A stretch of 64,000 bases of DNA, from assembly GCA_038217285.1 (NCBI GenBank), contig JBBQPO010000001.1, positions 5,841 through 69,840 on the forward strand, given 5' to 3'. Below the pieces are notes generated by a model. That model made no database searches. It had not been told where the DNA came from and saw only the letters and a program-made list of their open reading frames with translations. The position numbers and the translations under genes were made by a program. Numbering within the stretch: the stretch's first letter is position 1; the number at the start of each line of letters is the position of its first letter. Source of the DNA: Chthonomonadales bacterium (GTDB lineage: Bacteria; Armatimonadota; Chthonomonadetes; Chthonomonadales; Chthonomonadaceae). Below, one piece after another: positions 4,559 through 34,323 of this stretch.

Positions 4559-4626
4559 AGACATTATAGGCTACGGTTTTGTGACGCAGGCAGTAAGTCG
4601 GCGGTCCAGGTCGAGAAGCAGGAATA

Positions 4627-4665
4627 GACCCGTTCCGAAACAACATCGGAACGGGTCTTTCTCTC
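4627..4665 (+). terminator. Rho-independent terminator after the hsdR/M48 operon
   Basis: Perfect 12-bp stem GACCCGTTCCGA / TCGGAACGGGTC (4627-4638 and 4646-4657), a 7-nt loop, then TTTCT. Confidence 0.75.
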
Positions 4666-4896
4666 ATTCCAAGGAACCGGATTTCCTCGTCAGAGAAGTC
4701 TCTCACAACTCTGCCACATAATCCTCTTCCGAGCGCCTTCCAACGCATACTTCCACCGCGTCCGACGGTCTTGACGGCAGCCGTTTTCCCATAGCGAACG
4801 TTTTCTTGCAGGATATACGACGTTTACGTCGAACTTGGGATTACTGGCTTCGATGTCCGCTACAGAAGCAAATGCCAACCCTCCTGGATACGCCCG

Positions 4897-11633: not shown

Positions 11634-11646
11634 GGAGAGGCGCGTC

Positions 11647-12537: not shown

Positions 12538-12599
12538 CAGCCTTCCAACTCTATCCTTTCTCAAGCTTTCCGAAAGATCGAAAGAAGTTGACGATCCTG

Positions 12600-12912
12600 A
12601 GCGCGGAGGAAGTCGCGCTCACAGGCTCCGTTTTCCAGGTGGAGGATGAGAGGCTCGGGAAGATCTTGCGCGATCGCGGAGTAGCAGGAACCGCAGGCGA
12701 GGGCAATGGCAGCGACGGAAACCGCCACAATCACGACAACCTGCCCATTCTGCTGGCAGGCGGCGGGGCAAGGGCCATCAAACAGCAGGGCCAGCACCGC
12801 ACGTTCGCGCAGGACACGTTCCTCAACACTCTGTTCCTCTCTCCTGGACCGCATAGGCGTACACGCCGGATTGACAGGAGACAGCACAGGGCGCCTCATT
12901 ACCCTTATCTAA
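12600..12912 (+). pseudogene. Remnant of a DUF1552-family gene (C-terminal ~100 codons only, with a +1 frameshift)
   Basis: The frame containing 12711 reads SDGNRHNHDNLPILLAGGG...DTFLNTLFLS, the hallmark DUF1552 motif. The expected continuation LLDRIGVHAGLTGDSTGRLITLI* lies in the next frame after the CT-run at ~12838-12846. The ~330 N-terminal codons are missing. The 5' boundary is approximate. Confidence 0.55.
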
Positions 12913-14020: not shown

Positions 14021-14186
14021 TAAGCGATTGAGGCGGCAAACTCAGGTACAGAGACCCCACAAGGTGCGCTGCCCGTGTGCCGAATCAGCCTGCCCGGTGA
14101 CAATGGAAGTTCGCTGGGGACTGGCATCCTTACCGGCCCTTTGATGGCCTGTTTTGAGTGATTCGCAGAACAGTTATCGCGTTTCC

Positions 14187-14226
14187 AAGAGCCGAACAAA
14201 AAATTTGTTCGGCTCTTGTATTTTTG
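14187..14226 (+). terminator. Rho-independent terminator (probably the original terminator of the DUF1552 gene, displaced by the IS)
   Basis: Perfect 14-bp stem AAGAGCCGAACAAA / TTTGTTCGGCTCTT (14187-14217), followed by GTATTTTTG. Confidence 0.7.
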
Positions 14227-14387
14227 CGCCTGTCTGTCTCTCTACTTGTTACGCAAGGGCCAGGTTGACACTTGCGCTGGACCAAAATCCCCACAAGCGT
14301 CGAACGCAGACCTAGTTGACGCTTCGTGGCATCGGGTCGATGGATCCCCTGCCTTTGTCAAAAAACTTCTCGAAGAAAGAGGTACTT

Positions 14388-15785: not shown

Positions 15786-15905
15786 GACATTCTCCCAGGA
15801 GTCGATGCTCAAAAAAGAGAGCGGGGGGACACATCCGTTACCCCCTCTACCCTTCAGGAAACGCCCGTTCTCTCGTTTGAGAGCGGCAACCCCGACTACA
15901 CTGCC

Positions 15906-15968
15906 CGTCCTTTCCTGGGCTACCGCAAGATGGTGCTGCATCTGCGCAAGCAAGGACATCCCGTCAAC
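15906..15968 (+). pseudogene. Very short IS3-family transposase (OrfB N-terminal region) scar
   Basis: Translation RPFLGYRKMVLHLRKQGHPVN resembles the conserved (H)P.(Y/W)GYRR(I/M)...L...G..VN(KRV) segment that precedes the rve domain. No further similarity on either side. Confidence 0.3.
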
Positions 15969-15975
15969 ATAACAC

Positions 15976-16016
15976 TTACAAAAAGGCCGCCTGCGAAACT
16001 GATGCAGGTGGCCTTG
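15976..16016 (-). terminator. Rho-independent terminator of the DUF1080 gene
   Basis: 12-bp stem with 1 mismatch (15983-15994 and 16004-16015). On the minus strand it is followed by TTTTTG (A-run 15980-15984). Confidence 0.65.
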
Positions 16017-16046
16017 TTGTGTGAACTGGCTGCGGTTGGCGATGGC

Positions 16047-16859
16047 TTACGGCATAGGTGGATCAGCAGGTTTCGGGGCGGTCGATGGCAGGGCCGAAGA
16101 GTCCACGACCTCGACACCGTTCGGGCCGTTAACCGTATACTTCGTCTTCACGTAGATGTTCTTGAAGGAGGCGATGGTGTTGTCGCCGTGGCAGAGTTGG
16201 AAGCCGAGGGGGCCGCTCGCGAAGCCGCCAGGATCGTCGCCTTCGGCGGTCTTGACGCCGTTGAGGAAGAGGACGATGTGCGGGCCGTGCATGCGGATAT
16301 AGTAGTGGTTCCAGTCGTCCTTATGGAGGATCTTGTCGGCCTGCGCCTCGGGGAAATCGAAAATCTTCTTCTGGCGATGATGCTCGTCCCACAGGCAACC
16401 CCAGTAGCCCTGCCCCATGTCTACCTGATAGCCGGGGACATCGTCGAAGTTGACAGGGTGTATGCGGGCACAGACGCCGCTGTTGTAGCCGATCATCTTG
16501 ACATCGATATGCATCTCGAAATCACGGTAATCTTTGGCGGAGAACATATAGTGGTGATGCGGCGTGCTGCCGCCCTTGTCACCGACGATCGCGCCGTCCT
16601 TGACCTGCCAGTACTCCTTTTCGAAGAGCCATCCGTTCAGAGTCTTCCCATCGAACAGCGAAACCCAGCCTTTGGTGACGGGCTTACCGCTGACCGTCAT
16701 GCCTTCCGCGCTGTCGCCCCACTGCACGGCGTTTTTCCGCATCTTAACGTTTGGCTTGTGCGCCTTCACGACGGTATCTTGCGCATGGGAGACCGCCCAT
16801 GTTCCGGCGACCGCCAGCAGGCCGACGCTCAGCCCGAGCAGTCTCAAATTTGTTTGCAT
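16047..16859 (-). CDS. DUF1080 (3-keto-disaccharide hydrolase-like) secreted protein
   Basis: I chose the start MQTNLRLLGLSVGLLAVAGTWAVSHAQ (signal peptide) at 16859. Hallmark sequence GWVSLFDGKTLNGW...WQVKDGAIVG. Confidence 0.8.
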   Translation of the reverse strand: MQTNLRLLGLSVGLLAVAGTWAVSHAQDTVVKAHKPNVKMRKNAVQWGDSAEGMTVSGKPVTKGWVSLFDGKTLNGWLFEKEYWQVKDGAIVGDKGGSTPHHHYMFSAKDYRDFEMHIDVKMIGYNSGVCARIHPVNFDDVPGYQVDMGQGYWGCLWDEHHRQKKIFDFPEAQADKILHKDDWNHYYIRMHGPHIVLFLNGVKTAEGDDPGGFASGPLGFQLCHGDNTIASFKNIYVKTKYTVNGPNGVEVVDSSALPSTAPKPADPPMP

Positions 16860-16998
16860 CTTCGAAGCTCCTATGTTCGTGGGAGTTGGGAGGGGCGCGT
16901 CAATGATCCCGGGACGACGTTCGCGGCAGGCCACAGCGCCCTCTCTACATCGGTTCCTCACGGTGACGTTTCCCTGCTGTCTGTCGGGAAAGACGGCT

Positions 16999-19272
16999 CT
17001 ATGTTTCGGCGGATGTGGTTAGTTTCGCCTCCTTCAGGGCAGAATCCTCCGTATCAACGAGAGCTGCGTAGAGGGGGCAGGCGCAGGAGACGGCGAAGAG
17101 GCCCGCCGCTGTCACGACGCCGGAGTCTTTGAATAGCAGCGCGGCGATGATCGTGGCGAGGGTGACTTTGAGCCCCCGCGTCGACCAGGGCCGACGTACC
17201 AGGGCCTGACGCAGAGGAGCGCCGATGAGTGCATGGCCCAGGCCAAGCGGCAGCAACGCGAGGGCGGCAAGCACCCAGAACGGCGGCGAGATCAGCAGCC
17301 GCAGGTTCATGCCGACCTTGCGTACGATGATCTCCGCGAGATAGCCGGGGCCGCGTCCACCCGCCGAGGCCTGGATCGCCGCCCCGAAGTGCGAGCTTGC
17401 GCCGCCGCTACGCGCGGCGTCCAGTACGCCGAAACCGAAGGCCAACGCGAGCCCAAAGCCGACGCAGAGCGCCGCGAGCCCGAACGTGACCCGACGCCCA
17501 CATAGCAGCGCCAGCCCTACGCCGAACCCCGCGCCGGTGCAGGCCAGACTGCCCGCGTTCGCGCCCCAGCCGGGCCAGCCGAGCGCCACCATCATACCCA
17601 GCCAGCCTACGCCGATCAGCAGGCGCAGTTTCCGCCCGGTCGCGTCCGGCGGAAACTTCAGACGGCGGTCGTCGAGCAGTGCGAACATGCCGCTCAGCGC
17701 CGAGGCCAGCAGCGGCCCCAGATACTCGTTGCCGATCCCATAGTAGCGCAGTCCGGAGATCGCGTCACTGCAGAGCGGAGAGTCCTTCTGCAGCGGCTGG
17801 CCCAGGCCGATGTCCACCATGAGCACGGCGATCAGGAGAAGTGACGCCCCGACAGGCGGCGACACGCGCAGTACGCGGGAGATCAGGTAACTGCCGACGG
17901 TCAGCGCGCCCATCCAGGCCGCGATGCGCAGGGCGTACTCCTCGGCCGTCGGTGGGATCAGAATCGGCGCGAGCAGGGTGGCGGCGGTCAGGCTCTGCAG
18001 GGTGACGATGGCCCAGGCGAGGCGTCGGGCAGACTGCGGCCCCTGCGTTCGCCGCAAGACCATGCCGACAACGATCAGCAGCAGGCAGAGGAGCGTCAGC
18101 GGCGCGAGGCCCCAGGTCTTGACCGCTTCGTTCAGCGCCGAGACGAACTCCTTGCGCGCCACCGTCGCCAGGCGCTCCTCGGCGGTACGCTCTGTCGCCG
18201 TCACCTGGAGTGGCCGTCCGACCATGGTGCTCGGAATCGGGGCGTGGAGGAGACGCAGTACGGTCGGGGCGATATCGACATTGGCGATCAGGCCGGCGGT
18301 GCGCGTCGTGGCGGAGGTGAGCAGCCCGGCACCAAAATTCGGCCCGGTGGCGATCACCGGCGTCAGGCGCGTCCAGGGCACAGGGTAGCGATGCGGTTCG
18401 GCGGGTGGGTAAGACGAGACGAGGAGCAGATCGGTGTGGGAATGCGCGCGCATCCAGGGCAGGAGCAGCGACAGCATCAGATCCAGGCGCTGGAGGGCGT
18501 CGTGTCGTGCCTGCCGATAGGCCAATGGCGAGAGCCGGGGCCGGGCCGCTTCTGCCCGCGTCAGATCCCCCAACTGCAGCACGACCAGCCCGGCGTCCGA
18601 TTCGGTGAGGGACTGCAGCAGCAGCAGCGGATCGTCCACGATGCCGAACGGACTGCCCGGATGTTCGCGTCTGCTCCCTACTCTGCCCGCGCCGATCCCG
18701 ACGGCATCAACCGTCAGCAGGGCCGCACGACGGTCAGGCGTATCGGTGTCGGCGTTTCCGTAAACCTCAGCGCGCACGGGCGGAATGGCCTGCGGCAGAG
18801 CCGCGCCCAGCCGCTCGGCCGCCAGCCCGCGCCGCTCCAGCCCCGCCATACCAAGATGCCAGACAGGGTTAGGCGGCAGGGCTTTGCCGGTCGGCAGGTC
18901 TCCCATGCGGCGCACATAGACCGCGCGCGCGGTGCCGTGTTCGCCCAGAACCATCTCGTTGTCATCGCCTGCCTGCGCGTCGGTCGGTTCGCTCCGGGCC
19001 TGCTCCCCGGTCGCCAGGGTCAAGGTGGCGGAGAGAGACGAGCGCGGTCCGGGCACGACATCATTCATCACTCCGATAGCGCCTAGTCCTGCCCAGGCCC
19101 GCAGCCCTGCGCCGTCCACGCCCTGCAGATCGTCCATCGTCAGCCCGTCGCAGAGTACCAACACGACCCTCGGTCGCTCCTGTGCAGGAGCGACCAAGGG
19201 CCAGACGAGCAGAGCCAGGAATAGCACAATGCGAAAGGCTCCGAGCGCCAGGAAGCAGGCGATGGAATGCAT
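16999..19272 (-). CDS. Large membrane protein: N-terminal extracytoplasmic domain (alkaline-phosphatase-superfamily-like?) plus a C-terminal polytopic region
   Basis: I chose the start MHSIACFLALGAFRIVLFLALLVWPLVAPAQ (signal/anchor) at 19272, codon 162 of the 918-aa ORF. The upstream 161 codons are translated repeats. The segment RVVLVLCDGLTMDD resembles the metal-binding start of AP-superfamily enzymes. The C-terminal ~350 aa are strongly hydrophobic. Confidence 0.55.
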   Translation of the reverse strand: MHSIACFLALGAFRIVLFLALLVWPLVAPAQERPRVVLVLCDGLTMDDLQGVDGAGLRAWAGLGAIGVMNDVVPGPRSSLSATLTLATGEQARSEPTDAQAGDDNEMVLGEHGTARAVYVRRMGDLPTGKALPPNPVWHLGMAGLERRGLAAERLGAALPQAIPPVRAEVYGNADTDTPDRRAALLTVDAVGIGAGRVGSRREHPGSPFGIVDDPLLLLQSLTESDAGLVVLQLGDLTRAEAARPRLSPLAYRQARHDALQRLDLMLSLLLPWMRAHSHTDLLLVSSYPPAEPHRYPVPWTRLTPVIATGPNFGAGLLTSATTRTAGLIANVDIAPTVLRLLHAPIPSTMVGRPLQVTATERTAEERLATVARKEFVSALNEAVKTWGLAPLTLLCLLLIVVGMVLRRTQGPQSARRLAWAIVTLQSLTAATLLAPILIPPTAEEYALRIAAWMGALTVGSYLISRVLRVSPPVGASLLLIAVLMVDIGLGQPLQKDSPLCSDAISGLRYYGIGNEYLGPLLASALSGMFALLDDRRLKFPPDATGRKLRLLIGVGWLGMMVALGWPGWGANAGSLACTGAGFGVGLALLCGRRVTFGLAALCVGFGLALAFGFGVLDAARSGGASSHFGAAIQASAGGRGPGYLAEIIVRKVGMNLRLLISPPFWVLAALALLPLGLGHALIGAPLRQALVRRPWSTRGLKVTLATIIAALLFKDSGVVTAAGLFAVSCACPLYAALVDTEDSALKEAKLTTSAET

Positions 19273-19453
19273 TGTTGAGCACGTGACGGACAGGCGTGAG
19301 CGACAGCAGGCAAGCGATGGAATGAATTCCGTTCGCATGTGACCCGCCCGACGGAATCGACAGCAGGCGAGCGATGGAATGAATTCCGTTCGCATGCGAC
19401 CCGTCCGACGGAAGCGACAGCAGGCGAGCGATGGAATGAATTCCTTCGCTAGG
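19258..19453. repeat. 57-bp tandem repeat, ~3.4 copies (19301, 19358, 19415, plus a degenerate copy overlapping the start codon at 19272)
   Basis: Copies 19301-19357 and 19358-19414 differ at 4 of 57 positions. The third copy is truncated at 19453. The unit contains the hairpin AGCGATGGAATGAATTCCGTTCGC. Confidence 0.9.
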
Positions 19454-19490
19454 AGCCTTCGGCTGAGTGACCGCCTTCGCGGGCACAAAG
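19427..19490. repeat. Dispersed two-hairpin element, copy 1 (second copy at 63927-63992)
   Basis: The 27-nt core AGCGATGGAATGAATTCCTTCGCTAGG is identical to 63927-63953. The tail GAGTGACCGCCTTCGCGGGCACAAAG matches 63967-63992 with 1 mismatch. Confidence 0.85.
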
Positions 19491-19536
19491 CACTGACTGC
19501 AACCCTGTCTCTCGTCCGTGAGGACGATCCGGCGGA

Positions 19537-19697
19537 GCCGTGTAGCGAGGGGTGATAACCCCTTGACCGCCCCAAGACGCTGGTGTCGCCTCGTCCGACG
19601 GGCTTCCTGCCGAACCCGCGTAGCGAGGGGTAACACCCCCTGGCTGCCGAACACGCGTGGCGAGGGGGAACACCCCTTGGCCTTCGCGGGCACAAAG
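19537..19697. repeat. Three GC-hairpin units (GCGAGGGG-loop-CCCCT) plus a second copy of CCTTCGCGGGCACAAAG
   Basis: Units start at ~19539, 19617 and 19654 (AGGGGTgataACCCCT, AGGGGtaacaCCCCT, AGGGGgaacaCCCCT). The 17-mer CCTTCGCGGGCACAAAG occurs at 19474-19490 and 19681-19697. Confidence 0.8.
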
Positions 19698-19767
19698 ACG
19701 TTGCATTTCGAAAAAGCAATGGCTCTGGAACCGATAGGCCGATCTCTCTCTTCATGGGTGGCGCGCT

Positions 19768-22485: not shown

Positions 22486-22720
22486 GGTGTCTGGTTGCTC
22501 CGATAAGGTGATCTGTTGCCGTATAAGACAGAGGCGAGGCCAGTATAGTATACACGACAACGTCAAATCGAAGACAGCGCCGGTTTCAGGCCAAGGGCTG
22601 TTTGAGCTTCTTTTGGAAGAACCAACCTGCCGTTCGGCTCAACCGTCGCGTGATACTGTAATGTTGCCATGCTTTATGCCTCTTGTAGTTAAACTGCACC
22701 CTCTCTGTTCACGACATCAT

Positions 22721-25700
22721 TTATACACCGGATGCGATGACGCTGTGGAGCATTGTAGAAATGTATGACGTTTTGTCTTCGACCTGGAAGAGAACGTTGC
22801 GACTTGCAAACTCCGCTTTCTCATCGGCGGCCCACCAGCCGACTGACTTGAATGGAGTTGTCGAGACGATGAAGGAGTTCAGGACGACACTGGGGTCGCC
22901 CAGACGTGCCTCCAGCTCTTTGATGGTCTTGTAGAAGGCGATCTTCGGATCGTTTAGCCCGGCAAGATTGCGAATTCCTTTGGGGTCGATGAAGGTCACG
23001 AACTGTCGGTCGCCTTCGACAAGCCAGAGGATAAAGTCGGGATAGAAGTTGCCCGCCTCGAAGAAGCCGATGCCTCGGCCACGGCTCATATTGCGGAGAA
23101 GGTAGAGTTCGCGCCCCTGGAAGAACTCGCTATGGCTCTCATAGAACTTACGAAGGTCTTCGACGAAGTCGCGCTCGCCGACATTCAGTGGAACCGGCGT
23201 GATCTCCAGCAGTTTGTTCTTGAGATGCAGCAACGGTCTGTAGAGATGTCGGGAGAACCCGAGCGCCACAAGCGAATCGAAACTCCAGCCATCCTCGCGG
23301 AGTTGTCCGGAGGTAACCAGTGATTTCAGTTCCGTCAGTTTGGCGACGACCTCCTCCCGTTCCTGGTCTACCCAGATTCGGTACTGCTGGATGAAGTTCG
23401 GGTCGTCGGGAGCAATCTCTCGGTACTGCGTATGGGGCCGTTCGAACTCCGCTTTGCGGTAGAGATAGAGCCTTTCCACGTATTTCTTGAGCAGGGCGAC
23501 AGCGATCTCCTGCCAGCGACGCACCTTACCGAAATCGGTAAAATCCAGTTCCGCTGCCGGAATGTAGAGCGTATACCAGTCGTCGCGTTGGAGTATCTCA
23601 GAGACAGCCTCTCGGGAGAGGTTCAGGTTATACCAGGAACGCTCCGCCTTGTAGTTCTGCAGCGCAAACCAGATTTCGTCCCAATTGAAGAACGCCGTAT
23701 GGAGAGGCGTCAACTTGTGCGTCTCCAGAGCGCTCTCATCCGCTGGACGGCCTGTTCCCTTGCTCTGTTGCGCTTGAATCCTGGGATACCAGTTCAATGA
23801 AACCGGCGGCAATCCTCCGGCTGGGGGCTCCAGATTCGGTTTCGTTCCCTGCCGCTTAAAATCAACATCCTTCGGAACGTCCAGCACTTTTAATCTCCTT
23901 GATCCAAGGTTGTTGATGACCGGAAGTTCGAAAACGTCTTCTGAATCGCCAGGGGGAACACCCTCCTCTTCAAGCATCTCCTTAAACTGGGTCATGTAGT
24001 CGGCACGAACGCCGAACACATTCAGGGTTTCCAGGAAACGAAGGGACTTCGGCGGTTTGGGATTCAGTTCTAGCATGGACGAGCGTTTCAAGCTCATCTC
24101 ATGCCCCTTCAGGCGCACGCCACGCCCGAAAAGCTGAATGATCTGCGATCCTTCCGAGCGCCCGATGTTCATCAGTCCCATCGTCGAGACCCGCCAACTG
24201 TTCCAGCCTTCTGTAAACTTACGAGAACCGATGAGGATGTTGACCCTGGAATCTTTATCGTTGAGGCGTGCGAAGACCGAACCGCTAAACTGCTTCTCCC
24301 CGGTTATTAGCCCGGCCGCTTCGCAAAGCGCGTGTAGCCTCGGAGCGTCGCCGACGTTGATGACGCCAAAAGCCTCATTGTCGCCCAGACGCAGAGTCAA
24401 CTCGCCGTTCGAGCCTTTGAGCAGATCCACATGGAGAGCGGCCTGGAAGGGAGCATTGCATACCAGATCCAGGATACCTTCGTAGGCTTGCTGACCGGTC
24501 ATCCCCGACGTGTTCAAGTAATCGAAGGCGCCGGAGCCAAAAACGGAGCGGCCCTTCTGATCTCGCAAAGAGCCATCGTAGTTCAGGAGCCTCTGCAAGC
24601 GAACAACCGATTTCGCGCCTGCATTCGCAATGAACTCTTTGAAGAAGAGCAGCACCGTGGTGACGTCCGAGACTTCGCGTTTGTCCTCTGTGCGAACGGC
24701 ATTCACGCTGCCGCCGACGAAGATGGCGAGAGGCTTTTCCAGCAGGAACTTCGCAAATTCGGCACCCTTATCTTTGTATAAGCGGATCTGCTGATAGAAG
24801 GAGAGCAGGCAGGCGGTCAGGTAGAGATTCCGTATCTCGGCATCCTGGTCCTCTACGAGGTTCAGGATGCGATACTCTTTCCCGTAGCCGTCGCGATAGA
24901 AATACTTGTAGGAGTAGTCGAACAAGATACACCGCGCATACTCCTGCTCTAGTTTCCGTTGCGTGGCTCCGGCAGCGGCACGGACGACCTGGCCGAAAGT
25001 CGCAGAGTATTCAAAGGAAAAGCCCTGCTCGGCGAGCCTGTCACGCATCGACTTCCAGACTTCGCCGCTTGCACCGCGATGGCCTTCGTCTACCAGCACC
25101 AGGTTGTTACCTTCGAAGGCTTCGATAGCGACCGCCTTATCGCCCATCTCTTCCTTGAGTTTGGTGATCTCGATGACCTCGACAGCCTTGCCGGAGAAGA
25201 GCGATGCGCCGTCCTTCCGGAAGATGTCGGCTTCGATACCGGACTTCGCGAACTCCTCCAGGTGCTGCCGTGACAGCCCTTCGTTCGGCGTCAACAGGAT
25301 GATTCGGTTCAGGTCGCGCCCGCGCCCATGAGAGTTCAGATAGTGCTTGTACTGGAGGATATTGACGTGCATGAGCAGCGTTTTGCCGGAACCGGTGGCG
25401 CTCCAAAACGCGATTTTCCGCAGGTCTTCCAGTTTGTAAAGCTCAATGCCCGCAGCGTTGTCTCGATTGAACTCCCTGGAGAATGTATTCAAGTCAGCCA
25501 GCAAGCCGTTGAGATCCCGGAAATAGCGGTCGAGATAGATCTCGGCAAAAAGCAGGCTGAGATACTGGAAATACTTCCACTGCATCGGCTCGGGGCGACT
25601 TGCACTGATCGTCTGCGTATGCCGGACGATATTGTTGTCGTAGCGCAGGAGGTCGTCGTCCCGCAAATTGGCGCGTTCGACCGTCCGGTTGACCAACTGT

Positions 25701-25897
25701 TTGTGCAGGTGCGAGACGTTATCAACGTCAAGCCCTTCCAACTCCGGTCGCTTCAACTCCGAGGCAAGGTCTTCAAACCGCTCGACTTCGAAAAGCGACA
25801 GCATCCAGCGCACAAGAACCAGCTTCTGGTCGAAGCGCAAGGCAGGAGCAAGCATCTGCGGTTGCCCCGCATAGACCTGGGTGCGAGCGCGCCGCAT
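22721..25897 (-). CDS. SF2 helicase fused to a C-terminal PD-(D/E)xK nuclease, type III Res-like (1058 aa)
   Basis: Walker A SATGSGKT (25379-25399), DEGH (25079-25090), YSATF, and motif VI QLFGRGVRL. C-terminal nuclease signature YPDF...FIDPKG (22979-23041). The start ATG shares one nucleotide with the RhuM stop (TGATG). Confidence 0.8.
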   Translation of the reverse strand: MRRARTQVYAGQPQMLAPALRFDQKLVLVRWMLSLFEVERFEDLASELKRPELEGLDVDNVSHLHKQLVNRTVERANLRDDDLLRYDNNIVRHTQTISASRPEPMQWKYFQYLSLLFAEIYLDRYFRDLNGLLADLNTFSREFNRDNAAGIELYKLEDLRKIAFWSATGSGKTLLMHVNILQYKHYLNSHGRGRDLNRIILLTPNEGLSRQHLEEFAKSGIEADIFRKDGASLFSGKAVEVIEITKLKEEMGDKAVAIEAFEGNNLVLVDEGHRGASGEVWKSMRDRLAEQGFSFEYSATFGQVVRAAAGATQRKLEQEYARCILFDYSYKYFYRDGYGKEYRILNLVEDQDAEIRNLYLTACLLSFYQQIRLYKDKGAEFAKFLLEKPLAIFVGGSVNAVRTEDKREVSDVTTVLLFFKEFIANAGAKSVVRLQRLLNYDGSLRDQKGRSVFGSGAFDYLNTSGMTGQQAYEGILDLVCNAPFQAALHVDLLKGSNGELTLRLGDNEAFGVINVGDAPRLHALCEAAGLITGEKQFSGSVFARLNDKDSRVNILIGSRKFTEGWNSWRVSTMGLMNIGRSEGSQIIQLFGRGVRLKGHEMSLKRSSMLELNPKPPKSLRFLETLNVFGVRADYMTQFKEMLEEEGVPPGDSEDVFELPVINNLGSRRLKVLDVPKDVDFKRQGTKPNLEPPAGGLPPVSLNWYPRIQAQQSKGTGRPADESALETHKLTPLHTAFFNWDEIWFALQNYKAERSWYNLNLSREAVSEILQRDDWYTLYIPAAELDFTDFGKVRRWQEIAVALLKKYVERLYLYRKAEFERPHTQYREIAPDDPNFIQQYRIWVDQEREEVVAKLTELKSLVTSGQLREDGWSFDSLVALGFSRHLYRPLLHLKNKLLEITPVPLNVGERDFVEDLRKFYESHSEFFQGRELYLLRNMSRGRGIGFFEAGNFYPDFILWLVEGDRQFVTFIDPKGIRNLAGLNDPKIAFYKTIKELEARLGDPSVVLNSFIVSTTPFKSVGWWAADEKAEFASRNVLFQVEDKTSYISTMLHSVIASGV

Positions 25898-26919
25898 CAG
25901 TTGTTCTCCTCGGACGAGCGCCCCTGAATCCGCTTTACTTCCCGCTCGAAATCGCTTTCGAACGCTCTGTCCTGCTTGACCCGAAATTCGGCATATTGCG
26001 CTTCGGCAAGCTGCTTTGCCACTTCCCTGGATACTTCGCCCGGGTTCGTCAAGACTTCGTATTCGTTGAACTTGAGGAACGCGTCGAGACGGGCGACCCA
26101 GTCGGTCATTCGCATAGGAATATGGCGGGCAGCCTGATTTTCGGCATAGTCAAGGTACATGCCGACGATGCGTTCGAGTTCTTTGATCTCCTGCTCGATG
26201 AGATAGTTCTTCGCCACGCAGACGTCGGCTTTCAGGATCTTTCCGTCCGGCCCGTTCTTCCAGTGGGTCAGTCCCATGCTCGGCCTGGAAGCGTCCGCAC
26301 GAGAAGCGATGATCTCTGCCGCCGTCTGTCCTGTGACAGCCCAGTGAAGCTTGTTCTGCACCGTGGCGAAGAATGTCTTCGTGATCTCGGCGTCTTTGTC
26401 GTAGTCTATGCTCGCCTGCTCATAGATGTCCGTGATCTTGAGGTAGAACCGTCGTTCGCTGGCGCGAATTTCGCGTATCCGCTCCAGCAACTGGTCGAAG
26501 AAGTCTTTCCCAAAGCGTGTGTTCAGTTTCAGACGCTCATCATCGAGGACAAAGCCCTTTACGACAAACTCTTTGAGCGTTTGCGTCGCCCAGATGCGAA
26601 ACTGCGTCGCCTGGAGACTATTGACCCGGTAGCCAACGGAGATAACCGCATCGACACTGTAGAACTGCACCTGATATGTCTTTCCGTCATCGGCAGTATG
26701 TGCAAATTTTGCACATACTGCCTCGCTGTCCAGTTCGCCCTCGTCAAAGATGTTAGACAAATGCTTGGTGATGACACTGCGATCAACCGCAAATAGTTCG
26801 GCCATTCGCTTTTGTGTCAGCCAAAACGTGTCCTCGTCAAAGAGAACCTCTACCTTTACCGTTCCGTCATGCGACCGGTAGAGAATGACGTCACCCCGCT
26901 TGAGTTCCGGCTGATCCAT
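25897..26919 (-). CDS. RhuM-family protein (340 aa)
   Basis: [43 protein letters not shown]...YSVDAVISVGYRVNSLQATQFRIWATQTLKEF is a close match to my memory of the RhuM family. I chose the ATG at 26919 because it overlaps the MTase TAA by 1 nt. The alternative start at 26940 would overlap by 22 nt. Confidence 0.8.
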   Translation of the reverse strand: MDQPELKRGDVILYRSHDGTVKVEVLFDEDTFWLTQKRMAELFAVDRSVITKHLSNIFDEGELDSEAVCAKFAHTADDGKTYQVQFYSVDAVISVGYRVNSLQATQFRIWATQTLKEFVVKGFVLDDERLKLNTRFGKDFFDQLLERIREIRASERRFYLKITDIYEQASIDYDKDAEITKTFFATVQNKLHWAVTGQTAAEIIASRADASRPSMGLTHWKNGPDGKILKADVCVAKNYLIEQEIKELERIVGMYLDYAENQAARHIPMRMTDWVARLDAFLKFNEYEVLTNPGEVSREVAKQLAEAQYAEFRVKQDRAFESDFEREVKRIQGRSSEENN

Positions 26920-29900
26920 TAAATGTTCTCCACATCCCACATCAGACGATGGAAATCTTCTTCAATGAGGCGGACTTTCCATGTCTGGTCGTCCCTCTTA
27001 AAATTTTGCAGGTTGTTGTCGCCATTGACATAGATGACATCGAACTCCTGGTCGAGCGTATTATAGGTCTGCTTGCGGAAAAACTCGTCGAGCTTATCGT
27101 TCGGGTTCTCCACTGTATCCCGCCAGATGATAAGGGCCTTCTCCCCATTTTCGCTGTTGCCCGGACCAGGCAAGCGACCGGTGACCACATGGAAACCGCG
27201 AATGACGTCCATCGTCTGCACACGAAGCCCAAGCAGCCAGTTGAATGTCTCGGCAAGGTCAACATTTACTTCCTTTGTCTCACCAATCGTGTCCGTAGCA
27301 ACTTTGAGTTTGTACTGGAATGGGTGGGCGAATTCCTGGATATTGAGCATCGCCTGACTGCCCGCCGTTGCATCCTCTAGAACGTAGTGGAGCATATAAT
27401 CTTCGCGCAACGTGTCATTTGATGCCAACAAGTCGGTTTGAAGGCTATTTGGCTTGTTGATTTCCAAGTTAGTGAGGGCATCTTCGTAGGATTCGAGACG
27501 AAGAACCTTAATGATCCGTGGGCTACGTTCTACCTCTTTGACAGTAGCACGACGTTTGGGCTTTCCGTCCTTCCATTCCGGAGCATATGTTACTTTTTTA
27601 ATGCGAGGTACTAGCACGGTGTCAAAGTATGTCCCCATTTCAACAAGGGAGAATTTACGCCGCCCTCCATCGTCGCGATTGAGGTTGATTACGGCATGTC
27701 CTGTGGTCCCAGAGCCTCCAAAAAAGTCTAAGATAAGTGGCTCCTCATATTGATAGCTCATTGCCTCAACGGCATCAAGGACTGTATAGATTGACTTCGG
27801 ATAAGAAAATGCCTCGCGGTTGCCAAGGATTTCTGCAACGAGAGCAGTGCCGTGTGGACCAGCGTTATACCTACTGTCAGTCCAATTGCTCATAAGACTA
27901 CTTCGCTTGCCCTGAGTATCGACGACAAGTTTTATTGAGCCACCTTCGGTCATCACAATTTCTCCTGTTGCGAGACCTTTGACGGCTGATTCGTATGCTC
28001 TGCACCACACTTTTTCTTCGCCATTAGGACTAATGGGATAGCGTCTCGTATATCCCTCAGCAGTTTTGGCCGTTGGGTATGGTCCGGATGGGCCTGGCGA
28101 CGGTTCAATTCCAACAATCTTGTTGGAATCATCTACAAGTAGTGCATAAAAACTGTTTGAGCGTCCTGCTCGGGCCTTGTTATCGCCAGGTCCACTCAAC
28201 ATAAAACTTCGGTATTCGATGTCTCCAGATTTAGCTTTTCCCTTGAGAATGTCATTGCCTGACGGAGTCAGCATAAGCATATATTCGTGAGTCCGTGAAA
28301 CGTTATGGCTCATGCCTCCTTGAGGATGATGATTTACGACTACCATGTTGCGATCATAGTCAGTAAAGATACTGTCAACCAATTCACACAGGCGAGCCAA
28401 TTCCAGGTCGTCGATCGCAATTGCATAGCATGCGTCCTTGTGCAAAAGATGTAACGATCTGTAAAGTCGATCATTCATAAGCGATAACCAAGACGCATCG
28501 CGGTACGAGTTTTTATAGATGATCTCAGATTGGCCAGTATTGTAGGGAGGATCAATGTAAATACATTGCACTTGTGATCTATATCGTTGGTCCATGACGC
28601 CAAGCGCTTGGAAGTTCTCGCTTCTGAACATCAAGCCATCAGTCAATTCGTTTAGATCACCCAGTACTCTTAGCAACGAATCAGTAAAGGCTTCATTGTA
28701 ATGACGTGTATCTACTACCAATGTAGGATTCGCGTTCAGGAAATCCAATGTCAGCGGAATCGTATATCCAGGCTGTTCGAGATCCTGCTCTATTTCATCT
28801 ATAGCACACAGGTTTATCCACTCTAAACGTTGGGCATCGTTCGCCATAATGTCGTTATATAGCAACTTTGGCACACAGTTGAGAGTGACCAAGTATTGCG
28901 TTTCGACGACAAACTTCTTCTTGAGCCAGAGACGTTTCTGGAAGTCCTCAAGTTGGGCCAGAAATTCGATAATTTTGCTGGCGACCCGGCGAATTGCGCG
29001 CACTTTCGCCAAATACTGTTCGACCTTGGGAGCGGAGGCGTCTTCGATGTCATCGAGGTGCATGACCTCGTTCTTGATGTAGAAATCGAGTTCCCGCCGC
29101 AGGAAGCCGCCAAGGTCTTTGTGGATGAAATAGTCGAAGGTATTTCGAGCGGTATAGTCTGTTAGGTGCTTAGCCAGGACGGTTCGGGTAGGCTCTTTCG
29201 CGGTCGGAGCCGTCGCGTTGAGCAGTCCCTTCCACTCAGCAGGAGCCAAGGACAAGATCGCTTCTTCTGCCACGCCGTTCAGGTCTTTCTGCTTGCGCTT
29301 GGAGGCATCGTTGCGATATTCGAAGCGGAGGAATAGCTCGCCGTTCTCCTCTATGATCGGGTCCGCTTCGACCAGGATGAAGACGCGTTTCTCCGTCTCC
29401 TTATTGTTGTCTCGCTCCGTCTGAGCGTCGGCCAGTTTGAAGTGAACGCGTTTTTCGCCGCCTGCTTTGAATGTGTAGTCGCGGAAGTGTTCGGCAGTCT
29501 TGATGTAGTACTGGTCGGCGTTCGCCCAGTGGAGTTTGACTTCCTCGCCTTCATAGGGGATAGCATAGACGCCCTCTTTATAACGGCGCAGGCTGAGAAA
29601 GTCCCCTTCGTCGTAGTAGCGGCGGAAGAAGTTGTAAAGGTGGTTGAAGACTTCCTGCTCCAGCGCGCCCAGATCGCCCGCACCTGCATAGTTCGCGCGG
29701 AGTTCACGGACTTTGGGGCTGTCGTCGGGATTCATGCCCGCATTCCGAATCTGATTCTCCAGAGTTTCGAGTTCGTGCAGTCCGGCGCTGCCGATATCGC
29801 CCTGGGCGGCGTGCAGCACTTGTTTGACCTGTGGCAGCAGGTCGCGTTCGAGGAAGCGGACGATCTCATCTCGCTTTGAGTTCATAATTCGGTAGATGCC

Positions 29901-29972
29901 GAAGTCGAGATCCGCCTGGTCGAGTTGAAATATCTCGGTCAGTTTGGAAAGCAGTTTATCGTAGTTCGTCAT
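26919..29972 (-). CDS. Site-specific DNA methyltransferase, beta-class amino-MTase (N6-adenine/N4-cytosine family), type III Mod-like but 1017 aa
   Basis: Motif [12 protein letters not shown] (DPPY at 28542-28553) precedes motif [15 protein letters not shown] (27693-27725). The N-terminal extension is ~470 aa. The start shares 1 nt with the SNF2 stop (TAATG). Confidence 0.88.
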
Positions 29973-32833
29973 TAGATGATCCTCCAGCGGATCGTGAAAA
30001 GGTTGTCGGAATAGGTTTTCTGTTGCATGCGTTTCTCAAGAGCGCCGATGAGCAGGTTGCGCTTTTCGATGATTTCGTCTTCGATCTCAAATATCCGTTG
30101 CCGTTGTCGGCGCTGCCTTTGCTCCAGGTCGCGGATTTTGCTCTGAAAGGCGATCTGTTCTTCCGTGGTGGGAGCCTGCCGCGCCTGCCGATTGGCCTCC
30201 CGGAGCTGACCTTTAATGTCTTTCAACTCTTTTTCGGCCGCAAGGATCATGTCATCCGCCCACTTCTCCAGGCGTTCACGCTCCTCATTCATAAAGCGAT
30301 TGTTGGCTTCGAAGGATTGATGCATCGTCGCCTTTTGATGCTGCGCTGATTCGGCGGTCAGTCGCTCGGGCAGCGCCGAGCCATCGACCAGAGCGGTGAC
30401 TGCGCCTCCGCACAAGAACACCTTTTCCAGAACTTCCTGATCTACCGATGCACCGCTATCGGTAAAGCCAGACAGCAAAATGTACTCTTCACGCTCGAAC
30501 GCGTCGATGACAAGCTTATTGAGCGTCATCCAGCCAGCCTGCCCTTGCAAGCCTTCGACCACACTCAGGCGACCACGATGACTTGTGACGTCGAAGGTCA
30601 CCTCTGCCAATGGGGTCGGGCACGCCTTCGCGCGGTCGATCACATGCTCTCCAAGTGGATGAGAAAGCCGATACAGGAAATCGCCATCGATATTCTCTTT
30701 GCTCTTCGAGATGAGATGGTAGGTTCCTGTTGGGATGTCCGAGATCGGCGGACTGTTGAGATCGAAAGCCAGCGCATCGTCATCGAACACGGCGGCATCT
30801 CCGATGATATGCTCGGTAAGCCACCAGAACTGCTTTCCAAATCGGTCGAGTTGCTGCTGCGCGCCTTCTAGTTGCAGGCGCAGGCGCTGATGGATCTCTT
30901 CGTCAAAAAACTCCAACAGCATCTGTCGCGTTGAGGCCATGCGGGCCTTGATGCTGGCATCGAGTTGTTGCCGCAATTCGCGAAAGGCGACCTCGATCTG
31001 CGCGTTTGTTCGACAGGACTGATAGATGTCGTAAATCCGCTTTTCGAAATCGACCCCGGATTCTATGCTTCCGAGGACTTCATCGGACGCGCCGAAAACA
31101 CCATCGAACAGTTGAAACTTCTCCTCCAGGAGTTCAAAGGTGCGCTGATCGGCAGCGTTGCGCTCATTGACGAAGTTGATGACCACAACGTCGTGCTTCT
31201 GCCCATACCGATGACAGCGCCCGATTCGTTGCTCGATCCGTTGTGGGTTCCACGGCAGGTCGTAGTTCACGACCAGGCTGCAAAACTGAAGGTTCACGCC
31301 CTCGGCCGCCGCTTCCGTAGCAATAAGGATCTCGGCGTGATTCTTGAACTCCTCGATGATAGCGGAGCGCGCATCGACATCTCGCGAGCCTGTGACTTTG
31401 CCGGAGCCTTTATTGGCAGCGACCCAGCGATCGGTAAGCTTCCGAGCCTCCTCGTCGTTATTCGAGCCGTTGAAGCGAACGACTTTGCCCGCGTACCCAT
31501 TGGCATCGAGGAAGTTGCGAAGGTAGGACTGGGTGCGCCGCGACTCCGTGAAGATGAGCGCCTTTCGTGCAGCGCCGTTCTCCTGCATCTTCGTGAAGCC
31601 GATTTCGAGCGCGTTCAAAAGCGTGCGAGACTTGGAGTCTACTCCGATGCTCCGCGCCCACCGAATGTAGTGATCCAGCTCTTGTATCTCGGCGTCGAGC
31701 TTTGCAACGTCGATGGCGGGAGCGTTCTCACTCTCCTCTTCGACGTCGATGGCGCCCTCAAAGAGGTCGTCGTCCTCAAGATCCTCCCCGGCGATGATTT
31801 TGTCGACAATGTCGCCCTCGGGCATACCTGACTTCAGGTCCATGAGCCGCTGTTTGATGATCTCCAGCGTTCCCGCGATGGCCGGAGAGGACGAGGCGAG
31901 GATCTTCCTCAACCGGAGAGTCAAAAGTACGCGCTGGCGTTTGGGAATGCTGAAGGTCTCCGCGCGTTGGAGGAAGGTTGAAATAGCCTCGTAGAGAGTA
32001 TGCTCTTCATCGGTAGGGTGGAACGGGCGAGTGACGGCCTGGCGCTTTGTATACTGGACGTATTCCAGCACATCCTTCCGCAGCGTCCGCTTGCAGAACC
32101 CTTTGAGGCGCGTCTTCAGATCGTCCAGGTCGGCATCCGCACCGACATAGAGCGCACGAAAGACGGACGGCTCTCCGAACATATACTCGTCGATGATGGA
32201 GGACATGCCGTAGAACTCCATTAAGGAGTTCTGGAGCGGGGTCGCCGTCAGGAGAATCTTCTTAGGCCCTTCAACGGCGAGACGAATAGCCTGTCCTGTT
32301 TTGTTGCTTGGCTGGTGGGCATTGCGCAGCTTATGCGCCTCGTCGATAACGACCAGATTCCAACCGACCGCGCGAATCTCGTCCTTCATTTTTGCGGCGA
32401 AATTGTACGAACAGATGACGACCTTACCGCCTTCGAACGGACTGGCGGCGCCACCGTTCTTCACCTGGTTGTAGGCACGAGCATCCAGAATGATCGAAGG
32501 CAGATTGAACTTCTCTTCAAGTTCTGTCGCCCACTGCTTGCGAATCGAGGCCGGACAGATGACGAGAAGCCTGCGCTTACGCTCCGCCCAGAGTTGACAA
32601 AGAACAAGGCTTGCTTCGATGGTCTTGCCAAGACCGACTTCATCGGCAAGAAGGACGCCCTTGGAGACCGGCGACCGCAGCGCAAAAAGAGCGGCTTCAA
32701 TTTGGTGGGGGTTCAGATCTACATTGGCATCGAATAAGGCCATTGAAAGCCTTTCGAGTCCCTCCCGCGATGCTTGCCGAGTCAGATCATGAGCGAAGTA
32801 CTTCGCATGGTAGTCGGTAACGAGCAACGCCAT
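29972..32833 (-). CDS. SNF2-family ATPase/helicase (953 aa) with an uncharacterised C-terminal region
   Basis: Motifs LLADEVGLGKTIEA (Walker A, 32621-32635), VVIDEAHKLRN (DEAH, 32333-32344), LLTATPLQNS, LPWNPQRIEQRIGRCHRYGQ. N-terminal YHAKYFAHDLTR. RBS GGGAG upstream. Confidence 0.9.
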   Translation of the reverse strand: MALLVTDYHAKYFAHDLTRQASREGLERLSMALFDANVDLNPHQIEAALFALRSPVSKGVLLADEVGLGKTIEASLVLCQLWAERKRRLLVICPASIRKQWATELEEKFNLPSIILDARAYNQVKNGGAASPFEGGKVVICSYNFAAKMKDEIRAVGWNLVVIDEAHKLRNAHQPSNKTGQAIRLAVEGPKKILLTATPLQNSLMEFYGMSSIIDEYMFGEPSVFRALYVGADADLDDLKTRLKGFCKRTLRKDVLEYVQYTKRQAVTRPFHPTDEEHTLYEAISTFLQRAETFSIPKRQRVLLTLRLRKILASSSPAIAGTLEIIKQRLMDLKSGMPEGDIVDKIIAGEDLEDDDLFEGAIDVEEESENAPAIDVAKLDAEIQELDHYIRWARSIGVDSKSRTLLNALEIGFTKMQENGAARKALIFTESRRTQSYLRNFLDANGYAGKVVRFNGSNNDEEARKLTDRWVAANKGSGKVTGSRDVDARSAIIEEFKNHAEILIATEAAAEGVNLQFCSLVVNYDLPWNPQRIEQRIGRCHRYGQKHDVVVINFVNERNAADQRTFELLEEKFQLFDGVFGASDEVLGSIESGVDFEKRIYDIYQSCRTNAQIEVAFRELRQQLDASIKARMASTRQMLLEFFDEEIHQRLRLQLEGAQQQLDRFGKQFWWLTEHIIGDAAVFDDDALAFDLNSPPISDIPTGTYHLISKSKENIDGDFLYRLSHPLGEHVIDRAKACPTPLAEVTFDVTSHRGRLSVVEGLQGQAGWMTLNKLVIDAFEREEYILLSGFTDSGASVDQEVLEKVFLCGGAVTALVDGSALPERLTAESAQHQKATMHQSFEANNRFMNEERERLEKWADDMILAAEKELKDIKGQLREANRQARQAPTTEEQIAFQSKIRDLEQRQRRQRQRIFEIEDEIIEKRNLLIGALEKRMQQKTYSDNLFTIRWRII

Positions 32834-33060
32834 GAAGGCAGATCTCCCTACTCTGGAAAACTTAAACTGCTTCCAACATAACTGAACGCCCCGGCGAGGC
32901 TGGCCCCGATTGGGCTTCTACCGGTCGAGATAGGAAGAGGATAAATCAGTATACACGAAAACAGGCAAGTGATGATCCTGCCCTTCACGCGTCAACAACC
33001 ATTGTGTACGAAGCGTCCGTGTTGCCGGAGCAGCGCAAGTCGGCGGTAAGTGACCGCCCT

Positions 33061-34323
33061 CTAAGCAGGGTCCGCGCCTTGCCAGAGCGCGGAGAGCGGC
33101 ACGGCGAAGAGCTTTGCTCCGAACGGCACCACGCGCTCACCTGTATAGAGCACGATGCCACGCACAAAGCGCTCCGCTGTCAGCGCTTCCAACGCGCGCA
33201 GGCCCTTGAAGTCCTCTGCCCCTACCGTGCTGGACGCTTTCACTTCTATGCCGACCAGGGTGCCATCGCGCTTTTCCAGCAGCAGATCTACTTCTTCTCG
33301 GTTGGCGGTATGCCAATGGTAGAGCGTTGGGCGTGTTTCGCTCCAGCCGATGTCTTTTAGCACCTCCATGACCACAAAATTTTCGAGAAGGCCGCCCAGA
33401 TGCGTCGGTTCCTGCAAGAGTCTCGCTTCCGAGACACCGAGCAGATGCGCTGCAAGCCCGGTATCCGTCAATACGATTTTCGGCGATTTAATAAGACGGG
33501 TCGTCAGGTTTCCACTCCACGCTGGCACCGTGCGGACAAGATAGGTGGTTTCGAGCAGAGTCAGGTAGCGCGTGAGCGTGGAGTAAGGCACGTTGGCGGT
33601 GCGAGAAATGTCTGCAGCGTTCAGGAGCGAAGCGGTCCGAGCCGCAAGCAGTGCCAGGAGGCGCGGCATCTGAGTAAGGCCTTCAATGTTAGCCAGATCT
33701 CTGACATCCCGCTGCAGAATGGTTGCGATATACGATTCAAACCAGTTCTGTCGCCTTCTCGCGGGACGAGTCATCGGTTCGGGGTAGCCTCCCCGCACAA
33801 CACGTCCTATAATATCTTCGCGTGATGTCACAGGCGCGGAGGCAAAGGCGTTCAGAGGCGAGGCGAAAGCAAACAGTCTGTCGACAAAACTCACACTTAC
33901 CCCTTCGATCTCCGCTTGCGCGAGAGGCCACAGGGTCAGAATCTCCATACGGCCAGCCAGAGATTCAGAGAGCCTGGGAAGCAAGAGAACATTGGTCGAT
34001 CCAGTCAGCAAAAAGCGTCCGGGCCGCCTGTCTCGATCCACGCTGGCTTTGATCACAGGAAATAGTCCGGGCACGCGCTGTACTTCGTCCAGAATGACCG
34101 GTTCACCCGAAGCACTCAAGCTTGCGATAAATCCCGTCGGATCCGAAATAGCCGCCGAAAGGACATCGAGATCATCGAGCGTAGCATAGGTGGCAGAATT
34201 CGATGTTATTTCCTGCGCGCGTACAAGAGTTGTTTTCCCGGTCTGGCGGGCACCACCCAGAAGCACGACAGGAGTGTCGGCCAGTGCATCCCGCATTTGC
34301 TCGGCTACATTTCGTCGGTACAT
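33061..34323 (-). CDS. AAA+ ATPase with a C-terminal DUF4143 (restriction-endonuclease-like) domain
   Basis: Walker A LLGGARQTGKTTLV. C-terminal EVDLLLEKRDGTLVGIEVKAS (a D/E...ExK-like motif), characteristic of COG1373/DUF4143 proteins. Confidence 0.82.
   Translation of the reverse strand: MYRRNVAEQMRDALADTPVVLLGGARQTGKTTLVRAQEITSNSATYATLDDLDVLSAAISDPTGFIASLSASGEPVILDEVQRVPGLFPVIKASVDRDRRPGRFLLTGSTNVLLLPRLSESLAGRMEILTLWPLAQAEIEGVSVSFVDRLFAFASPLNAFASAPVTSREDIIGRVVRGGYPEPMTRPARRRQNWFESYIATILQRDVRDLANIEGLTQMPRLLALLAARTASLLNAADISRTANVPYSTLTRYLTLLETTYLVRTVPAWSGNLTTRLIKSPKIVLTDTGLAAHLLGVSEARLLQEPTHLGGLLENFVVMEVLKDIGWSETRPTLYHWHTANREEVDLLLEKRDGTLVGIEVKASSTVGAEDFKGLRALEALTAERFVRGIVLYTGERVVPFGAKLFAVPLSALWQGADPA

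Follow-up and report, generated by a model that had tools for sequence, protein, structure and literature searches.

A type III-like restriction-modification operon headed by an SNF2 ATPase gene in a Chthonomonadales bacterium

Type III restriction-modification (R-M) enzymes hemimethylate an asymmetric DNA site, cut in an ATP-dependent manner approximately 25–27 bp from that site, and require two inversely oriented sites for cutting. They are the textbook example of long-range communication along DNA, in which ATP triggers a sliding switch. The operon described here combines genes of this type with a gene for an SNF2-family ATPase and a RhuM-family gene. It is located on a 64,000-nucleotide stretch of DNA from a Chthonomonadales bacterium (GenBank assembly GCA_038217285.1, contig JBBQPO010000001.1, positions 5,841 to 69,840), the whole of which is called the window, and coordinates are counted from its first letter. 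An earlier sequence-only reading of the window had taken the locus for an unclassified hybrid, in which a DISARM-like SNF2 and methyltransferase module was joined to a type III Res-type helicase-nuclease and an integrated RhuM gene. Based on profile searches, structure models and a survey of related loci, we consider it probable that a type III-like R-M operon was acquired here by horizontal transfer and that it comprises, besides mod and res, an accessory motor and a passenger gene.

SNF2 motors have been found beside other methylation-based systems. Genes resembling RapA, or DrmD of DISARM (the restriction-modification-associated defense island system), are reported as add-ons to ietAS, to BREX (bacteriophage exclusion) type 3 and to ARMADA (PMC13069673, PMC12839542, PMC12458937). 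In openly searchable full text, subscription journals and REBASE being outside the search, no description of SNF2 together with type III R-M as a defined system was found, and within that scope the sequence-only reading was right that no characterized system has this composition. The sole mention found is a gene list that names both SNF2 and type III R-M in one island (PMC12757443).

The operon and the distribution of its SNF2 family

In the ORF (open reading frame) listing of the window, four minus-strand ORFs run head to tail. In order of transcription they are:

29972..32833, minus strand: SNF2-family ATPase gene, 953 aa
26919..29972, minus strand: type III-like Mod methyltransferase gene, 1017 aa
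25897..26919, minus strand: RhuM-family gene, 340 aa from the ATG at 26919, or 347 aa from the first GTG at 26940
22721..25897, minus strand: Res-like superfamily 2 (SF2) ATPase-nuclease gene, 1058 aa

Stop and start codons overlap at all junctions (TAATG at SNF2/mod and at mod/rhuM, TGATG at rhuM/res), and thus the four genes are read as one translationally coupled operon. The ORFs, their coordinates and every motif quoted in the sequence-only reading are present, each motif at one position, and profile searches with Pfam, PADLOC and NCBIfam agree with its gene and domain calls. The closest named relatives come from a Fimbriimonadaceae metagenome-assembled genome (MAG), at 81–82% identity.

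An alignment of SNF2 homologs served to scan a set of genomes with a single representative for each species; matches came from more than 596 of these representatives, and 80 loci were retrieved. Their ORFs were classified by phmmer against seeds identified by PADLOC as type III Mod or Res of several classes, and a genome locus was regarded as testable when its SNF2 gene was full length and was followed downstream by 8 kb or more of sequence. Type III Mod and Res were encoded on the same strand beside the SNF2 homolog in 53 of 54 testable genome loci, and IMG/VR contigs had SNF2 beside Mod/Res in 31 of 33 cases. Complete same-strand trios were found in 57 genome loci, arranged as SNF2-Mod-Res in 54 and as Mod-Res-SNF2 in three, and the operon of the window matches the layout of these loci. 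The SNF2 gene is always on the strand of its partners and usually abuts mod. The sole exception among the testable loci, in a Mesocricetibacter MAG (L041), has approximately 10 kb of downstream sequence devoid of Mod and Res, and its SNF2 gene is split into ORFs of 297 and 633 aa, as would fit a motor gene decaying after the loss of its partners.

The reverse survey started from Res. A metagenome scan yielded 47 loci of the long class, to which the Mod and Res of the window belong, with at least 3 kb of sequence upstream of mod; an SNF2 gene was located directly upstream in 41 of them, full length in 34 and cut at the contig end in 7. The SNF2 family is almost never seen without Mod/Res, whereas Mod/Res sometimes stand alone, and such asymmetric dependence is the signature of an accessory component. 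Because the family occurs almost only beside mod and res and its gene is coupled to mod here, we read the SNF2 protein, from gene neighborhoods, as an accessory part devoted to the restriction system and not as a mere neighbor.

These counts bear directly on the view that a plain type III R-M system merely lies beside unrelated defense genes, with SNF2 and RhuM being independent single-gene systems that share an island. Such a view can draw on PADLOC, whose candidate single-gene systems include RhuM (PDC-S05), on the incongruence between the SNF2 tree and the Mod/Res classes, and on SNF2 helicases reported from several other defense systems, such as HmaA, ZorD and the ietAS-associated ietH (PMC11232893, PMC13069673). 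For the SNF2 gene it is largely refuted by the co-occurrence in 53/54 and 31/33 loci, on one strand and usually abutting mod. The overlapping stop and start codons of SNF2 and mod and the broken SNF2 gene of the only genome locus without Mod/Res also speak against it, and we regard it as very improbable. Independence of RhuM is accepted within the explanation favored here, that of a type III-like operon in which the motor is accessory and RhuM a passenger.

By record titles, the hosts among the matches listed span at least 15 phyla. These include Nitrospirota, Planctomycetota, Proteobacteria, Bacillota, Bacteroidota and Acidobacteriota, and further Verrucomicrobiota, Chloroflexota, Gemmatimonadota, Elusimicrobia and Patescibacteria. 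The SNF2-Mod-Res layout is also carried by conjugative IncF plasmids of clinical Enterobacteriaceae, namely Escherichia coli, Klebsiella and Salmonella, and on those of E. coli and Klebsiella the operon is preceded by a small helix-turn-helix (HTH) gene overlapping the SNF2 start. On the E. coli plasmid pEC316_2 (L081; NZ_CP018955.1 29496-39248) the order is HTH-SNF2-Mod(1046 aa)-Res(1120 aa), and the ssb/psiB leading-region genes are found a few kb upstream of the operon. On the Salmonella plasmid pR18.1595_113k (L082), an IS256 element and an Abi gene stand between the SNF2 gene and mod. The pEC316_2-type variant is present in 2 of 5426 complete E. coli genomes, and the enterobacterial plasmid versions provide ready material for experiments.

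At least three Mod/Res classes occur as partners of the SNF2 family. One is the long class found in the window, the second has a Mod of approximately 550 aa and a Res of approximately 890–900 aa, and the third is EcoP15I-like, its Res matching the EcoP15I chain 4zcf_C at 1.3e-54.

The core proteins and their proposed roles

The SNF2 protein carries the motifs DEVGLGKT (residue 64), DEAH (164), LTATP (195) and QRIGRCHRYGQ (535), each at one position, and matches the Pfam families SNF2-rel_dom (5e-36) and Helicase_C (5e-21). Its motor covers approximately residues 32–640 (nt 30914–32740) and is followed by a family-specific C-terminal module, approximately residues 665–953 (nt 29975–30841), which consists of a beta-rich domain and a coiled-coil hairpin of approximately 60 residues. 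This module was found in 853 clusters at 50% identity, always at the C-terminus and in proteins of approximately 920–1000 aa. Across 47 homologs there is no variation in Walker A, DEAH or motif VI, and by these motifs the protein is a catalytically intact ATPase. Neither an N-terminal Tudor-like domain nor a nuclease domain was seen in it. The AlphaFold2 (AF2) model has a mean predicted local distance difference test score (pLDDT) of 76.8, with 85–94 in the C-terminal module, and its best fold match is RapA, aligned over the whole length (approximately 1050 columns, E 4e-24). RapA is also the best sequence match among solved structures.

In Mod, motif IV (DPPY, residue 474) precedes motif I (residue 750), which is the beta-class order. 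N6_N4_Mtase (PF01555, 3.7e-18) is its sole Pfam match, and the PADLOC model MTase_III PDLC03646 matches at 3.3e-246. A profile of 29 homologs matches the solved Mod proteins of Helicobacter (6k0w), Mbo45V (7dsu) and EcoP15I (4zcf_A) at 7e-55 to 3e-54, with the matches spanning profile positions 445–854, the central ~400 residues; DPPY and FxGxG are conserved among the homologs. By sequence, Mod is thus firmly placed in type III. The protein is laid out as an N-terminal module (residues 1–440, nt 28653–29972), a core of approximately residues 441–800 (nt 27573–28652) with the beta-class N6-adenine methyltransferase and target-recognition region, and a C-terminal extension (801–1017). The N-terminal 440 residues and the C-terminal ~200 residues have no match in Pfam, NCBIfam or the PDB. 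The N-terminal module is separable and is also encoded by free-standing ORFs of approximately 420–480 aa. In Neisseria spp. (L034, L037) this region is an ORF of its own (437 aa) followed by a methyltransferase of 646–661 aa, and in Pyrinomonadaceae MAGs and Burkholderia multivorans it forms ORFs of 426–484 aa (among proteins P0294, P0313, P0355, P0284 and P0339). Two database proteins have a GIY-YIG or DUF559 nuclease domain inserted into the module.

Res carries ATGSGKT (residue 167), DEGH (270), SAT (298), QLFGRGVRL (588), YPDF (952) and IDPKG (970), again each at one position. The motor extends over approximately residues 157–600 (nt 24098–25429) and the C-terminal PD-(D/E)xK nuclease over approximately 900–1058 (nt 22724–23200), an SF2 ATPase fused to a C-terminal nuclease that fits the type III architecture. 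GSGKT, DEGH, SAT, QxxGRGxR and P953-D954...D971-P972-K973 are invariant in 42 homologs. The matches are ResIII (4e-11) and SWI2_SNF2 (PF18766, 1.7e-8) in Pfam and REase_III PDLC03654 (3.6e-223) in PADLOC. Among solved structures, neither phmmer nor a profile search of the PDB finds a relative, and Foldseek with the AF2 model, a modest one (pLDDT 72, predicted template modeling score 0.43), gives nothing below E 0.01. In hhalign, 49 columns around motifs V–VI align with EcoP15I-like Res at a probability of 50%, and with the other Res classes the motor motifs alone align. With Res homology ending at the motor, the type III label therefore rests on Mod, on architecture and motifs, and on the PADLOC model, and Res is best described, from its sequence, as a distant branch that is type III by these last three features. 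The word "unclassified" used in the sequence-only reading was nevertheless too strong: PADLOC type III models fit both Mod and Res, and the SNF2 family also partners EcoP15I-type systems.

From what is known of the family, Mod would mark one strand of a short asymmetric host site, and Res in complex with Mod would cut unmarked incoming DNA through its PD-(D/E)xK nuclease after ATP-dependent long-range communication. RapA frees stalled RNA polymerase from DNA, and by analogy the RapA-like SNF2 protein would use ATP to move along DNA or to remodel DNA-protein complexes. It might remove roadblocks or phage proteins bound to the DNA and so open the way for communication between Mod-Res complexes. 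Alternatively, it might recycle Mod-Res complexes that are still bound after switching or cutting; type III enzymes are described as dissociating slowly during and after the reaction (PMC3413136). Either activity would be expected to raise the efficiency of restriction, while RhuM would act as independent cargo, for which a toxin-like role in a second line of defense has been proposed.

Several observations weigh against this explanation. The remodeling or recycling role is drawn by analogy with RapA, and the SNF2 protein lacks the N-terminal domains with which RapA binds RNA polymerase. Methylation, cleavage and protection are likewise, for this locus, predictions from sequence. Six of the 47 long Mod-Res pairs have no SNF2 gene upstream, clearly so in three (L097, L136 and L142), and thus the motor is not strictly required. 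Neither fusion nor interaction evidence tying SNF2 to Mod/Res was found: SNF2-Mod/Res gene fusions are absent, and the extra regions of three longer SNF2 proteins (P0379, P0396 and P0089) have no Pfam domain and no similarity to Mod or Res. Between Res of the long class and EcoP15I Res, no similarity is detectable outside the SF2 motifs. Finally, the partner classes are interspersed on the neighbor-joining tree of SNF2, showing no congruence with the Mod/Res classes. This makes the motor gene a portable partner of type III systems generally, and it also lessens the support for a tight physical complex.

Sequences cannot tell help from restraint, and the same motor could serve the host instead of the attack. 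SNF2 might guard against self-restriction by stripping Mod-Res from unmodified host sites after replication, repair or fresh acquisition. It would thereby do for this system much of what ClpXP does for type I enzymes, rendering it tolerable and transferable in spite of its toxicity. The gene is the first of the operon, so its product is made before Res; the system is highly mobile, with hosts in many phyla and copies on conjugative plasmids and IMG/VR contigs; enzymes of the RapA kind free DNA of bound proteins; and the persistence of some Mod-Res pairs without SNF2 is expected of a non-essential safety factor. However, classical type III enzymes already avoid self-cleavage by needing two inversely oriented unmodified sites, and a locus deprived of its safety factor should come under selection to lose res, whereas the SNF2-less loci keep a full-length Res. 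On balance we think a guarding role unlikely.

A further claim goes beyond the accessory-motor explanation, and we put it forward as a doubtful possibility. SNF2-Mod-Res could be a distinct and very widespread three-component restriction class in which cleavage depends on two different motors. As parts of this one joint claim, the long-range step would fall to the SNF2 translocase, or the translocase would act as a sensor of phage interference; the rules would be unlike those of classical type III, for example in site-orientation or roadblock dependence; and SNF2 with Mod would be an ancestral module and the source of DISARM-type DrmD.

A dedicated, intact SNF2 motor in a large fraction of natural type III-like operons is an unrecognized common layout, which reaches antibiotic-resistance plasmids of Klebsiella, E. 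coli and Salmonella. Roadblock clearing, enzyme recycling, prevention of self-damage and the countering of phage inhibitors are candidate roles of the second motor that are testable in E. coli, and such a role could also explain the obscure helicases DrmD, BrxHII and ArmA of DISARM, BREX and ARMADA. For annotation, a gene labeled "SNF2-related protein" beside mod and res belongs to the R-M system, and RhuM and similar genes inside such operons are to be read as interchangeable cargo.

Cargo genes and genomic setting

The RhuM protein matches PF13310 over profile positions 1–249 of 252 (1.6e-109; 365.5 bits against a gathering cut-off of 33.7) and the PADLOC candidate PDC-S05 at 4e-149. The gene is present in approximately 10 of approximately 220 related loci (L009, L015, L033, L052, L064, L071, L078, L116, L182 and L185), of long and short classes, always between mod and res. 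Elsewhere this slot is empty or holds AIPR (Abi-like), AAA_21 with DUF4276, Schlafen/AlbA_2 or SMC-like ATPase genes. The stretch from the SNF2 gene to mod offers a second slot, again either empty or filled with such accessory genes. Filled slots were seen in L001, L004, L005, L011, L018, L042, L044 and L057, and some of the Schlafen/AlbA_2 proteins carry HATPase_c_4. RhuM is rare and is swapped for other genes, and thus it is, by its distribution, an interchangeable cargo gene and not a core component. The sequence-only reading had proposed a four-gene system whose members should be co-conserved; this holds for SNF2 with Mod/Res, in 53 of 54 loci, and fails for RhuM, so that the four-gene unit itself was given up. 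RhuM within R-M operons has been noted earlier (PMC3710099, PMC9881135). In the same sources, type I operons are described as embedding RhuM, Fic/DOC, PrrC and Abi genes, with the accessory gene just upstream of the restriction-subunit gene, and RhuM has been proposed there as a toxin-like second line of defense (PMC3710099).

G+C content changes from approximately 0.65 in the flanks to 0.47–0.56 over roughly 22–35 kb, which indicates that the operon sits in acquired DNA. The flanks contain alaS, a DUF4143 ATPase gene, an ABC transporter and metabolic enzymes. The noncoding features around the operon are:

32834..33060, minus strand: operon leader (intergenic, upstream of the SNF2 gene), 227 nt, presumed promoter region
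32948..32962, minus strand: direct repeat, upstream copy GTTTTCGTGTATACT, 15 nt, with the exact core TCGTGTATACT, 115 nt upstream of the SNF2 start
22547..22561, minus strand: direct repeat, downstream copy GTTGTCGTGTATACT, 160 nt past the res stop, just before alaS

The leader holds the terminator-like hairpin of the next upstream gene at 32963–32983. Unlike in the enterobacterial plasmid versions, there is no HTH or controller ORF ahead of the SNF2 gene in 32834..33060, and no phase-variable repeats were found in mod. The 11-nt core TCGTGTATACT has exactly two copies in 64 kb, both on the minus strand, flanking the operon and 10,401 nt apart, and the 15-nt near-repeat follows the pattern GTT[G/T]TCGTGTATACT; two or more matches arose in 5 of 100 shuffles. 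The pair may be a cassette boundary formed by target duplication, or a shared promoter, operator or regulatory element.

Between res and alaS, a 35-codon ORF (22586–22693, minus strand) reads MATLQYHATVEPNGRLVLPKEAQTALGLKPALSSI. On reading, the encoded peptide resembles an AbrB/SpoVT-type antitoxin cut down to its N-terminal half and is possibly a toxin-antitoxin remnant at the insertion point; this very short fragment has no Pfam match. Directly upstream of the operon and in the same low-G+C stretch, an ATPase with AAA_14 and DUF4143 is encoded at 33061–34323 (minus strand) and matches the PADLOC candidate PDC-S01 at 2e-168. It was considered as a fifth component and rejected, being missing from 80 of 80 related genome loci, and is therefore a separate passenger of the island. 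Near alaS, a 918-aa ORF (16999–19755, minus strand, G+C 0.69) has no match in Pfam, PADLOC or NCBIfam, and either represents an unannotated family or is one of the spurious long ORFs that high-G+C DNA typically contains.

Comparison with described systems

The common theme shared with RapA, with BrxHII of BREX type 3 and with ArmA of ARMADA is an SNF2 motor added to methylation-based defense (PMC12839542, PMC12458937). RapA and BrxHII are described by their N-terminal Tudor-like domain or domains (PMC12839542), which the SNF2 protein of the window lacks, and its partners are type III Mod and Res instead of PglX-type methylases. The sequence-only reading had seen neither PglZ nor BrxC, and our scans agree: no PADLOC model for either matches the four operon proteins or five neighbors, and none was seen by Pfam in eight more flanking ORFs, the rest of the window lying outside these model scans. 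BREX and MADS were both rejected, as the four operon proteins have no PglZ, BrxC or mad model match; the mad3 and mad8 matches of the nearby ABC transporter represent generic ATPase similarity. With type I operons that embed RhuM, the locus shares a toxin-like accessory gene just upstream of the restriction gene. It differs from them in that the host operon is of type III and that a second slot, between SNF2 and mod, also takes cargo.

Class 1 DISARM shares with the locus an SNF2 protein with a closely related motor, its pairing with an adenine methyltransferase, and a place in defense islands. The locus could be read as a degenerate or minimal class 1 DISARM that has kept DrmD and the methylase and has Res in place of DrmA, DrmB and DrmC. 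The top PADLOC and NCBIfam matches of the SNF2 protein are indeed DrmD models. However, the PADLOC match (PDLC02619, 4.8e-202) covers only profile positions 25–654 of 872, and the match to NCBIfam DISARM_DrmD_b covers only positions 22–651 of 868 and reaches 679.6 bits, short of the equivalog cut-off of 950. A true DrmD aligns with residues 32–640 only, at 42% identity over 612 aligned positions. It follows that the DISARM likeness proposed for SNF2 in the sequence-only reading stands for the motors, which are close relatives, and fails for the C-terminal third, where the modules differ.

The likeness proposed for the methylase was mistaken: Mod is of the PF01555 type and matches the EcoP15I, Mbo45V and Helicobacter enzymes at ~1e-54, whereas DrmMI is described as of the PF13659 type (bioRxiv 10.1101/2021.12.28.474362). 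The effector here is a Res-type helicase-nuclease in place of DrmA, DrmB (DUF1998) and DrmC (PLD), and the absence of these three, already noted in the sequence-only reading, was borne out by tblastn with the DrmA, DrmB and DrmC of L211, which finds nothing in the 64-kb window at E below 0.5. That DISARM and type III systems do meet is seen in L211 (IMGVR_UViG_3300037455_001397, 3703-18375), the verified DISARM locus that supplied these queries and the DrmD used above. It reads Mod(695 aa)-ResIII helicase(947 aa)-DrmMII-DrmD-DrmA-DrmB-DrmC on one strand, with the type III-like pair right upstream of the DISARM genes, and it hints at a type III and SNF2 unit as the base onto which some DISARM systems are built. 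For the locus of the window, DISARM membership was rejected on the missing DrmA, DrmB and DrmC, the wrong methylase family and a DrmD match confined to the motor; moreover, the uniformity and wide spread of the SNF2-Mod-Res trio go far beyond what decay would produce, and the probability that we leave to a degenerate DISARM is very small.

The closest comparison is with the classical type III enzymes EcoP1I and EcoP15I (Mod2Res, PDB 4ZCF), and the locus is best filed beside type III R-M as an SNF2-assisted variant. It differs from the classical systems in that the operon is headed by a third conserved gene, that of the SNF2 ATPase, and carries a cargo gene between mod and res. Its Mod is longer, by approximately 400 aa at the N-terminus and 200 aa at the C-terminus, and its Res is similar to EcoP15I Res in the motor motifs only. 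In common with the classical systems, mod precedes res, both are co-oriented and have no specificity gene, Mod is a beta-class N6-adenine methyltransferase homologous to EcoP15I Mod, and Res joins an SF2 motor to a C-terminal PD-(D/E)xK nuclease. Elsewhere, Res proteins that are themselves EcoP15I-like (1.3e-54) are accompanied by the same SNF2 family.

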